Assembly (NCBI GenBank): GCA_049966395.1
Contig: JBMFUT010000006.1
Span: 1-30,019, forward strand
Reading direction: 5' to 3'
Length of the DNA stretch: 30,019 nucleotides
Origin: Candidatus Micrarchaeia archaeon
GTDB taxonomy: Archaea > Micrarchaeota > Micrarchaeia > Micrarchaeales > CABMGC01
In this document: piece after piece, positions 20,704 through 29,858 of the stretch
How the letters are laid out: the number at the start of each line of letters is the position of its first letter
Numbering within the stretch: the first letter of the stretch is position 1
Notes under the pieces: generated by a model
The model's input: only the letters and a program-made list of their open reading frames with translations
What the model was told of the DNA's origin: nothing
Databases searched by the model: none
Position numbers and translations under genes: made by a program

Positions 20704-20805
20704 GCTGGGGTCGCCTAGTGGTAAATTGGAAATTCACTAAAGGGCGGCAGCCTGCTAAGCTGTTTGGCTGAATAGCCTCCGTGGGTTCGATTCCCACCCC
20801 CAGCG
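20704..20805 (+). tRNA. tRNA-Ser(GCT) with an 18-nt intron in the D-loop (20723-20740)
   Basis: Acceptor GCTGGGG/CCCCAGC, discriminator G; anticodon arm GCAGC-CTGCTAA-GCTGT; long variable arm; T arm GTGGG-TTCGATT-CCCAC; bulge-helix-bulge around the insertion. Confidence 0.95.
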
Positions 20806-20812
20806 CTTCCGC

Positions 20813-28730: not shown

Positions 28731-29702
28731 ATGCAGTACCTCAAAAGGGACGATATCCTTTTCGAAAGCGCTGCGCTTAAAGGCAATCCACTGCGTGATC
28801 CGCACAAGAGAGAGATTGCAATACTAGAGCCTGCGGAGAGCGAGGGCAGACCTATAATGATTTTCCTTTCTGGCTACGGTGGATCGAGCCTCGACATGCT
28901 GAACCGCGATCCGCTCGGAGAGGATATGAAGCGCAAGGCCGAGAGGCTGATCAAGAGAAAATTGATGAAAGGGTCAGTGATGATCTTTCCAGACACATTT
29001 ACCAGGGTGGGGGGAAACCAGTACTTGAATTCCACCGCAGTGGGCATGTATGAGGATTTCATAATAAAAGAGCTCGTGCCTTACTTAAAGGAGAAATACT
29101 CGTCTGAAAGCGTTGCGCTGCTGGGCAAGTCTTCCGGCGGCTATGGCGCGATCACTCTTGCAATGAAGCATCCAGGAGTCGTATCGGCCGCGGCAGACCA
29201 CTCAGGCGATGCATATTTTGAATATTGTTACATTAGGGATTTCCCTGATGCCTGCAGGGAAATATCAAAATACGGCAGCGCGGAAAAATGGCTCAATGCC
29301 TACTGGAAGAAGGAGAACAAAAGGTTGCAATCAGACATGGCGCCGCTAGGCACAATAGGGATGGCGGCTTTCTACTCTCCTAATGGCACTCGCATAGAGC
29401 TGCCTTTTGAAATGGATACGTGCGAGATCAGGAATGAAGTTTGGCGAAAGTGGATAGAAAAGGATCCCGTAAGGATGGTGGGCAAATACTACGGCAATTT
29501 GAAGAAGCTGAAGATGCTGATGATAGACGTAGGCACGGAGGACGAATACGGCCTGAACTGGGGCAACAGGATACTGCACAAAAGGCTGATTCGGCATGGC
29601 GTCAAGCACGTGTATGAAGAATTCGAAGGAGGACATCGCAACACAAGCTACAGGTACGACAGGTCAATGCCGCTCGTTGAGAAAGCCCTGTACCAGCAAT
29701 AA
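28731..29702 (+). CDS. Alpha/beta hydrolase, putative esterase (Fes-like)
   Basis: GKSSGG nucleophile elbow, DVGTEDE acid, GGH histidine. Confidence 0.88.
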   Translation: MQYLKRDDILFESAALKGNPLRDPHKREIAILEPAESEGRPIMIFLSGYGGSSLDMLNRDPLGEDMKRKAERLIKRKLMKGSVMIFPDTFTRVGGNQYLNSTAVGMYEDFIIKELVPYLKEKYSSESVALLGKSSGGYGAITLAMKHPGVVSAAADHSGDAYFEYCYIRDFPDACREISKYGSAEKWLNAYWKKENKRLQSDMAPLGTIGMAAFYSPNGTRIELPFEMDTCEIRNEVWRKWIEKDPVRMVGKYYGNLKKLKMLMIDVGTEDEYGLNWGNRILHKRLIRHGVKHVYEEFEGGHRNTSYRYDRSMPLVEKALYQQ

Positions 29703-29732
29703 TATATATTATTTTGCACAATTCTACTCTGT

Positions 29733-29858
29733 GCCAGGGTGGCGGAATCTGGTAACGCGCCGGTCTTGAGTCTTTGCTCAAGAGCTGATTAGTGATGCGA
29801 AAATGGCAAGTTAACCGGTGCCCTTACGGGCTTTAGGGTTCAAATCCCTACCCTGGCG
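29733..29858 (+). tRNA. tRNA-Ser(TGA) with a 42-nt intron at canonical position 37/38 (29771-29812)
   Basis: Acceptor GCCAGGG/CCCTGGC, discriminator G; spliced anticodon arm CCGGT-CTTGAGA-ACCGG; long variable arm GCCC-TTAC-GGGC; T arm TAGGG-TTCAAAT-CCCTA; central helix CTTG/CAAG. Confidence 0.95.
29771..29812 (+). ncRNA. Candidate intron-encoded box C/D-like guide RNA targeting U34 of tRNA-Ser(TGA)
   Basis: Guide CTCAAGA, box D-like CTGA (29785-29788), box C-like GTGATGC (29792-29798). Confidence 0.6.

Follow-up and report, generated by a model that had tools for sequence, protein, structure and literature searches.

Methylation guides carried by introns have textbook status only for tRNA-Trp. 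In the euryarchaea Haloferax volcanii and Pyrococcus the intron of this tRNA guides the formation of Cm34 and Um39, i.e. 2'-O-methylation of C34 and U39 (PMC4090602, PMC11408192, PMC7994747); the accessible parts of a 2014 review call it a unique example, and those of a 2024 review name no other archaeal case (PMC4090602, PMC11408192). Nanoarchaeum equitans has an elongator tRNA-Met whose intron yields a stable 66-nucleotide (nt) RNA with one box C and one box D, which was proposed to be a methylation guide, neither a target nor methylation being demonstrated in the available text (Randau 2012, PMC3491384). As far as the accessible text of the sources goes, archaeal C/D guides are repeatedly aimed at position 34, and Watson-Crick pairing is required at N+5, the target base opposite the fifth nucleotide upstream of the box (PMC6009581, PMC7994747). 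Free-standing C/D small RNAs (sRNAs) directed at the wobble position include Pyrobaculum sR27 (U34 of tRNA-Gln) and sR46 (U34 of tRNA-Thr) and those of Pyrococcus for tRNA-Leu, tRNA-Met and tRNA-Trp, and in the same parts of these sources none is described with a tRNA-Ser target (PMC6009581, PMC7994747, PMC7668247).

Here we describe an element of this kind in the 42-nt intron of a tRNA-Ser(UGA) gene, located in a 30,019-nt window (the whole stretch of DNA that was analysed, from contig JBMFUT010000006.1 of a Candidatus Micrarchaeia archaeon). The genome holding the window comprises 693,655 bases in 34 contigs, of which the window is contig C6, and is 89% complete. Judged from its comparative sequence record, the intron is probably a single-K-turn, half-mer box C/D-like guide for 2'-O-methylation of nucleotide 34 (Nm34), acting on the precursor before splicing. 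In the open-access main texts, intronic guides are described only for tRNA-Trp and, tentatively, for N. equitans tRNA-Met, with none for tRNA-Ser; having found no published description for the latter, we would regard the element as a known class of guide that is new in tRNA-Ser.

The layout is read directly from the sequence, and every motif lies where the initial annotation had placed it. The anticodon region TCTTGAG (29764-29770) has its exact reverse complement CTCAAGA (29777-29783) within the intron, followed by the box CTGA (29785-29788), the 3-nt spacer TTA (29789-29791) and GTGATGC (29792-29798). With the tRNA numbered as C32=29765, U33=29766, U34=29767, G35=29768, A36=29769, G37=29770 and A38=29813, T29767, the wobble base U34, is the partner of A29780, which lies five bases upstream of CTGA, as had also been claimed. 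Numbered upstream from the box, guide nucleotides g7-g2 (UCAAGA) stand opposite A36..U31, g8 opposite G37 and g5 opposite U34, and the guide helix often runs on for 1-3 further pairs that involve G37 and the intron's first bases. The guide lies inside the 37/38 intron of the very tRNA whose anticodon loop it pairs with. Compared with a canonical guide of 10-12 nt bracketed by box C and box D', N+5 falls exactly and invariably on U34, and the guide is not bracketed by a box C.

K-loops formed by boxes D' and C' are standard binding sites of L7Ae. In GCTGA-TTAGT-GATGC (29784-29798), internal to the intron, tandem sheared G.A and A.G pairs form with the GA of CUGA, followed by U.U and C-G; g1 (G29784) then pairs with C29798 and adds a Watson-Crick pair below these, which gives GCUGA-UUAGU-GAUGC the anatomy of a C'/D' K-loop. 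The sequence fits the rules for a K-loop, and L7Ae would be predicted to bind it. In a single sequence such boxes occur at chance frequency: CTGA N3-10 TGATG is found 4 times in the window against 2.74 expected, with 32 of 100 shuffles reaching 4, and 42 times genome-wide against 42.3 expected. The case therefore rests on conservation and covariation.

Conservation in orthologous introns, on which the initial annotation had staked its reading, was assessed by BLAST with the whole 126-nt gene against 61 genomes (its own and 60 relatives; one order, three families). Matches were obtained in 60 of them and full-length intron-bearing genes in 57, and 66 of the 67 full-length places were aligned, the omitted one lying in an unpublished genome. 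The boxes, the guide and their spacing are kept in all 66 introns while the flanks vary: C[A/G]AGAG-CTGA, a loop and TGATG recur in 66/66 genes, T stands at g7 in 65/66, CTGA is invariant (66/66, and 62/62 in alignment A1, which holds 62 genes from published genomes only), and an indel between guide and CTGA never occurs. Among the 64 unique genes the guide is Watson-Crick paired at g2, g3, g4 and g6 in every case, at g5 in 62 and at g7 in 63; the same genes hold 54 versions of the pre-guide segment, 32 of the loop and 45 of the post-box segment, and their introns range from 31 to 48 nt. Twenty core positions are fixed across two families and at least 45 genera, and the rest of the intron has diverged in both sequence and length.

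In A1, 97.1% of the cells in the named structure pair; with the 3' partners displaced by 1-3 columns the share is 23-51%. Neither the paired fraction nor the covariation score of the real alignment is reached in any of 500 shuffles, a count that is not a probability, since the sequences are related and significance is overstated. Among the 61 distinct rows the closing pair of the K-loop is G-C in 55 and G-U in 6, and N37 and g8 covary (G-C 25, A-U 8, G-U 8). The spacer between the boxes is 4-5 nt in most genes, giving a K-loop. Spacers of 9-10 nt (L017, L049, L055 and L088-L090, for example) form a 2-bp stem capped by a UUCG-like tetraloop or triloop, followed by a G/A-A-U bulge and GA, and judged by these pairings the long-spacer relatives hold a true K-turn with its own C-stem. 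We take the comparative evidence to make the element a real one.

The base at g5 follows the wobble base. For this comparison 161 unique genes were pooled, part of them found via the pattern with the combinations of N34 and g5 left free, so the invariance of the boxes in this set is partly by construction. A stands at g5 in 121 of the 122 genes with U34, the remaining one having G, and among 39 genes with C34 (CGA isoacceptors) g5 is G in 33, which bears out the expected covariation; leaving out two genes that come from unpublished genomes gives U34-A 119, U34-G 1, C34-G 33 and C34/A 6. Only 15 of these 39 genes have a splicing-helix partner that can pair with C34. Two paralogues of one genome, L106 and L123, have an identical 10-nt pre-guide segment and differ at N34, g5 and the splicing partner. 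In the 64 BLAST-found genes, moreover, the splicing helix has G-U at U33 in 24 and a mismatch at G35 in 15. Because the guide is Watson-Crick paired where the splicing helix tolerates G-U or mismatch, the guide pair at 34 is under tighter constraint than the splicing pair, as the Watson-Crick requirement at N+5 predicts, to the extent that the requirement is set out in the accessible text (PMC6009581).

Guide and splicing helix exclude each other, as the initial annotation had supposed: both need exon bases C32-G35, as seen in the sequence and in constrained folds of the 161 anticodon arms, so that the guide pairing competes with the bulge-helix-bulge (BHB) structure recognised in splicing. 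When the window's precursor is folded, the guide conformer comes out as the structure of minimum energy; it is also the more stable of the two in 127 of the 161 arms, and the relatives can form 4 splicing-helix pairs in 94 cases, 3 in 62 and 2 in 5. This predominance of the guide conformer leads us to read the element as a cis-acting half-mer C/D-like ribonucleoprotein (RNP).

A mechanism may be proposed in which the 5' half of the intron would fold back on the anticodon loop of its own 5' exon, placing the K-loop directly 3' of the guide helix. L7Ae, and then Nop5 and fibrillarin, would assemble on this single site, and fibrillarin would 2'-O-methylate the base opposite g5, i.e. U34, or C34 in the CGA isoacceptor. 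Since the guide helix and the central BHB helix share C32-G35, the RNP form would have to open before the endonuclease could cut; modification would come first and splicing second. We infer that L7Ae binds, that an RNP is built around one K-turn, that the target is methylated, and that the guide acts in cis, although it may instead act from one precursor on another.

Within this genome the design extends beyond tRNA-Ser. The initial annotation had suggested looking for analogous anticodon-matched guides, and two were found, in the introns of tRNA-Met(CAU) and tRNA-Trp(CCA), in the same N+5 register. The tRNA-Met intron of this genome consists of a pre-hairpin, the guide GAUGAGU, G, AUGA, the GC hairpin GCAAUUUGC and UAUGA, and the guide G opposite C34 is the fifth nucleotide upstream of AUGA. 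Order and register are kept in 29 aligned genes of relatives, where a 7-nt complement of the anticodon region (mostly UAUGAGU) is followed by G, xxGA, a hairpin or loop, and xAUGA. The tRNA-Trp intron reads UUGA-hairpin(GCC..GGC)-GAUGAUGA, a 12-nt guide and xUGA, with C34 at N+5; its K-turn carries a D-like box upstream of box C, no terminal box D is clearly recognisable in this intron, and the layout is conserved in 29 aligned relatives. As all three introns match their own anticodon, three tRNAs of the lineage would carry intronic guides aimed at position 34.

With the exact pattern TCRAGAGCTGA N3-14 TGATG, 165 of 401 genomes in a phylum sample were matched, the reversed pattern used as a control giving 1 match. 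By family the counts are 74/82 (f1), 89/94 (f3), 0/1 (f2), 1/76 (f9) and 0/147 (other families); the f9 match and five further f1 and f3 sites lie outside tRNA genes. Fourteen f1 and f3 genomes were searched again, namely 13 without the exact pattern and G035, the relative unmatched by whole-gene BLAST. Three of these hold the element with one g7 substitution and two an intronless tRNA-Ser(CGA), and the remainder gave either further serine tRNAs alone or no match. Within the element-carrying families, tRNA-Ser(CGA) genes without an intron lie at L382 (G217:C37) and L364 (G108:C5), and no intronless tRNA-Ser(UGA) was seen in the f1 or f3 genomes searched. In 66 genomes searched from other families of the class, the 10 tRNA-Ser(UGA/CGA) genes that were read are intronless or have unrelated introns.

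A public genome collection held at least 107 tRNA-Ser loci with the element, among at least 120 pattern loci, 13 of which were bacterial chance matches. Among the matches listed, 97 of 107 record titles name Micrarchaeota, Micrarchaeia, Micrarchaeales or Micrarchaeaceae, a picture with which the lineage guessed in the initial annotation (Micrarchaeota/DPANN) agrees; the other titles, as given, are eight 'Marsarchaeota', one 'archaeon' and one 'Methanothrix sp.' (a 3.4-kb contig). In these searches the element is restricted to two families, to which public records give the label Micrarchaeota. One record, titled Candidatus Micrarchaeota archaeon ARM-1 (locus L189), belongs to an organism cultivated in co-culture with a Metallosphaera host according to the accessible text (PMC8784108), which makes the predicted wobble methylation directly testable.

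Several observations weigh against a guide that methylates, and the first concerns architecture. Some reconstituted archaeal systems methylate efficiently only with a two-K-turn architecture. The intron lacks a terminal box C/D pair, as had been recognised from the start (within its 42 nt CUGA occurs once, and upstream of the guide there is no box C), and likewise a second guide and a box C 12 nt upstream of D', so it falls short of the canonical two-K-turn architecture. A second guide for position 39 of the tRNA-Trp type is equally absent, with no box D or guide downstream of C'. The guide duplex is short, with 6 invariant pairs and g8-N37 formed in 43 of 64 genes. Rfam C/D families searched at E values up to 10 gave no match on the intron, and a strict regular expression for canonical C/D sRNAs returned only 2 candidates in the genome. 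The better of these, at G000:C1:72009-72063 (+), reads GTGATGA, 12 nt, CTGA, 9 nt, ATGAAGA, 12 nt, CTGA. Elsewhere in the window, at 29516-29591 (+) in the 3' end of the upstream open reading frame, weak Rfam matches to sR35 (E 1) and sR19 (E 3.6) are probably due to chance, as the box spacing does not fit.

The covariation has its own limits. Six of the 39 genes with C34 keep A at g5, a mismatch at the target. On a gene tree of 156 genes built with the three trait columns masked, the best topology implies 18 changes at N34 and 19 at g5, and only 3 contrasts between U34 and C34 fall on supported branches, about 2.6 of them in the same direction and none in the opposite one; with so few, a sign test cannot reach significance, and independent covariation events are not statistically established.

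The third difficulty lies in the proteins. Genes for fibrillarin, Nop5 and L7Ae, which the initial annotation had named as a prerequisite, are all present. By profile matching, fibrillarin (226 amino acids (aa), 239.5 bits with Pfam) and L7Ae (159.4 bits with TIGR03677, cut-off 134.6) are ordinary. The Nop domain is matched at 164.8 bits, but the 263-aa Nop5 matches the 417-position aNOP56 profile only over positions 136-371, and its alignment with the 388-aa Sulfolobus solfataricus protein spans residues 139-369; the N-terminal fibrillarin-binding domain is therefore missing. A six-frame search of the 89%-complete genome found no separate N-terminal piece, and the spacer upstream of the gene is too short for the missing domain. 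The truncation is shared: for most of the 81 class genomes the open frame that holds the homologue is short. Two relatives have long open frames around it, with N-terminal extensions that by eye look like junk rather than a domain. The N-terminus was examined with NCBIfam NF011121 and by alignment to PDB chains, a blank from Pfam NOP5NT (PF08156) being uninformative here because this model is unmatched in every control genome. In architecture the Nop5 of this lineage resembles eukaryotic Prp31, and the open-access literature (including PMC11213020, PMC8784108 and PMC3239211) offers, in its main texts, no description of an N-terminally truncated archaeal Nop5.

Among the alternative explanations, the one with most weight is that the K-loop binds L7Ae, perhaps together with the short Prp31-like Nop5, and that no methylation follows. 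The element would then have a structural or timing role: it could sequester the anticodon loop, act as a chaperone in precursor folding, or delay splicing until other maturation is complete. Besides the truncated Nop5, a single K-turn with a short helix, the alternation of guide and splicing helices with the guide form usually the more stable, and the tolerated g5 mismatch would all suit such a role. It accounts poorly for the invariant spacing from helix to box, which sets N34 exactly at N+5, in the same register as in the tRNA-Met and tRNA-Trp introns, and for the near absence of G-U at the target (g5-N34 is Watson-Crick in 154 of 161 genes and G-U in 1), although G-U is common in the neighbouring splicing helix. 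Fibrillarin has also been kept in a genome of 0.69 Mb. Moreover, structure prediction places fibrillarin on an N-terminal helix of the short Nop5 (residues 9-25) with a score of 0.72, the best of 3 controls reaching 0.03; at least 93% of contacts agree between runs, and the partner has a predicted local distance difference test value (pLDDT) of at least 89. The mark applied is reached by 51 of 78 solved complexes and by 2 of 108 mismatched pairs, but Nop5-fibrillarin complexes have already been solved, and the pass may reflect likeness to these rather than binding by this copy. The short Nop5 is accordingly only predicted, from the model, to hold fibrillarin via this helix. On balance we consider a purely non-catalytic role unlikely.

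It is much less probable that the intron, once excised and in linear or circular form, works in trans as a small RNA on some other RNA such as ribosomal RNA (rRNA), the match to the anticodon being secondary: g5 covaries with the anticodon of its own gene, and among six rRNA genes of three single-contig relatives the 7-nt target CTCTTGA is found in none, while the 6-mer TCTTGA occurs in three, at differing positions. The window's own genome contains no assembled rRNA. Among relatives, the small-subunit (SSU) rRNA match spans about 2007 nt in L355 (G051) and L356 (G044) versus 1486 nt in L354 (G017), a difference which suggests rRNA introns in some members. Finally, that the motif arose by chance, or was kept passively through recent common descent and has no function, is hardly credible, for although the boxes alone are no commoner than expected and relatedness inflates the shuffle tests, the fixed core stands in an otherwise diverged intron, compensatory changes occur at N34/g5 and N37/g8, and the divergence of the aligned genes excludes near-identical recent copies.

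We therefore retain the half-mer guide for Nm34 as the preferred reading. A wider proposal, plausible but distinctly more tentative, is that Micrarchaeales use single-K-turn cis guides in at least three tRNA introns (Ser-UGA/CGA, Met and Trp) for Nm34 formation before splicing, together with a truncated Prp31-like Nop5. If this wider proposal is true, a half-mer C/D RNP with a guide of 6-8 bp would be a natural active enzyme, and the symmetric two-K-turn architecture would not be obligatory. The tRNA-Ser element would offer a natural minimal substrate for establishing how few RNA elements a C/D enzyme needs, and would tie wobble modification to the order of precursor processing. The three elements together would provide a functional reason for reduced DPANN genomes to keep these introns, and the analysis further brings to light a lineage in which Nop5 is without its usual fibrillarin-binding domain.

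The features are collected in the table below. The tRNA gene itself is matched by the Rfam tRNA model at 46 bits (E 1e-08, gathering score 29), the anticodon loop being interrupted by a 45-nt insertion in this match; ARAGORN reports tRNA-Ser(tga) with a 42-nt intron (tctttg...caagtt) when introns are allowed and 0 tRNAs in the window when they are not. A BHB has two 3-nt bulges separated by a 4-bp helix, with each cut after the second bulge base, and the archaeal form (hBHBh') is found here with the helix CTTG/CAAG and the bulges AG/T and TT/A. The ideas that the UGA of the anticodon itself serves as a box and that the guide helix makes up a second splice motif were both rejected, because the 3' exon must resume at A38. 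Two other serine tRNAs of the genome were recorded. At 20704-20806 (+) of the window, what ARAGORN labels 'tRNA-Phe(aaa) with intron' resembles, by eye, tRNA-Ser(GCU), with the loop CTGCTAA, a long variable arm and a D-loop insertion of about 18 nt. At G000:C12:1833-1943 (L071) lies a tRNA-Ser(GGA) missed by ARAGORN, with an apparent 11-nt 37/38 intron and a 13-nt T-loop insertion.

Table 1 Features of the tRNA-Ser(UGA) locus (window coordinates) and of related loci in the same genome (contig coordinates)
Feature	Position	Strand	Basis or remark
tRNA-Ser(UGA) gene, intron-bearing, discriminator G29858	29733..29858	+	Rfam tRNA, aragorn -i
5' exon, positions 1-37	29733..29770	+	sequence, aragorn intron position
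Anticodon stem 5' strand CCGGT	29760-29764	+	sequence
Anticodon loop C32-G37	29765-29770	+	sequence
Anticodon UGA; U34 = 29767, proposed methylation target	29767..29769	+	aragorn, N+5 arithmetic from CTGA at 29785
5' splice-site bulge AG/T, cut after 29770	29769..29771	+	derived via standard BHB geometry
Canonical 37/38 intron, 42 nt	29771..29812	+	aragorn -i
Putative guide g8..g1, CTCAAGAG	29777..29784	+	sequence
Box D' CUGA, non-bulged K-loop strand	29785..29788	+	invariant in aligned relatives
K-loop loop TTAGT	29789..29793	+	length and sequence vary in relatives
Box C' core GAUGC	29794..29798	+	TGATG invariant in relatives
CAAG, 3' strand of central 4-bp BHB helix; partner C32-G35 (29765-29768)	29807..29810	+	sequence
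3' splice-site bulge TT/A, cut after 29812	29811..29813	+	derived via standard BHB geometry
3' exon: A38, anticodon stem 3' strand, long variable arm, T arm, acceptor	29813..29858	+	
TATA-like AT-rich stretch, 18-33 nt upstream of tRNA start; possible archaeal promoter	29700..29715	+	sequence only
Nop5 gene, 263 aa	G000:C3:44188-44976 (L002:1489-2277)	-	
tRNA-Met(CAU) gene, intron with layout of the tRNA-Ser type	G000:C2:32346-32462 (L293)		mislabelled Ser(cga) by aragorn
tRNA-Trp(CCA) gene with intron	G000:C19:13961-14105 (L292)		

Among described systems the tRNA-Trp guide is the closest. As far as the available texts describe it, that guide too lies in the 37/38 intron of its own target, its guide upstream of D' pairs with the anticodon loop with position 34 at N+5, and its methylation and splicing structures compete; the tRNA-Trp intron of this genome has that layout. 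The euryarchaeal intron has boxes C, D', C' and D, two guides and a C-to-D' spacing of 12 nt, whereas in the tRNA-Ser intron there are just D' and C' and a single guide of 6-8 pairs, box C being absent, and the proposed target is U34 or C34 of a different tRNA. With N. equitans tRNA-Met, as presented in the accessible text, the element shares its place inside a tRNA intron of a DPANN archaeon, although the tRNA and the anticodon differ. Within the present lineage the tRNA-Ser boxes are near consensus (CUGA / UGAUG), whereas the D'-like box of the tRNA-Met type is degenerate (AUGA, ACGA, AGGA). Free-standing wobble sRNAs, by the parts of the sources available, have the same target position, including U34, and usually one functional guide, but each is encoded by a gene of its own, possesses both K-turns and acts in trans through guides of about 10-12 nt. 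With CUGA, a short loop, UGAUG, tandem G.A pairs, U.U and a closing G-C pair, the motif resembles the C'/D' K-loops bound by L7Ae; in the tRNA-Ser intron the K-loop stands alone, unaccompanied by a terminal K-turn in the same RNA.

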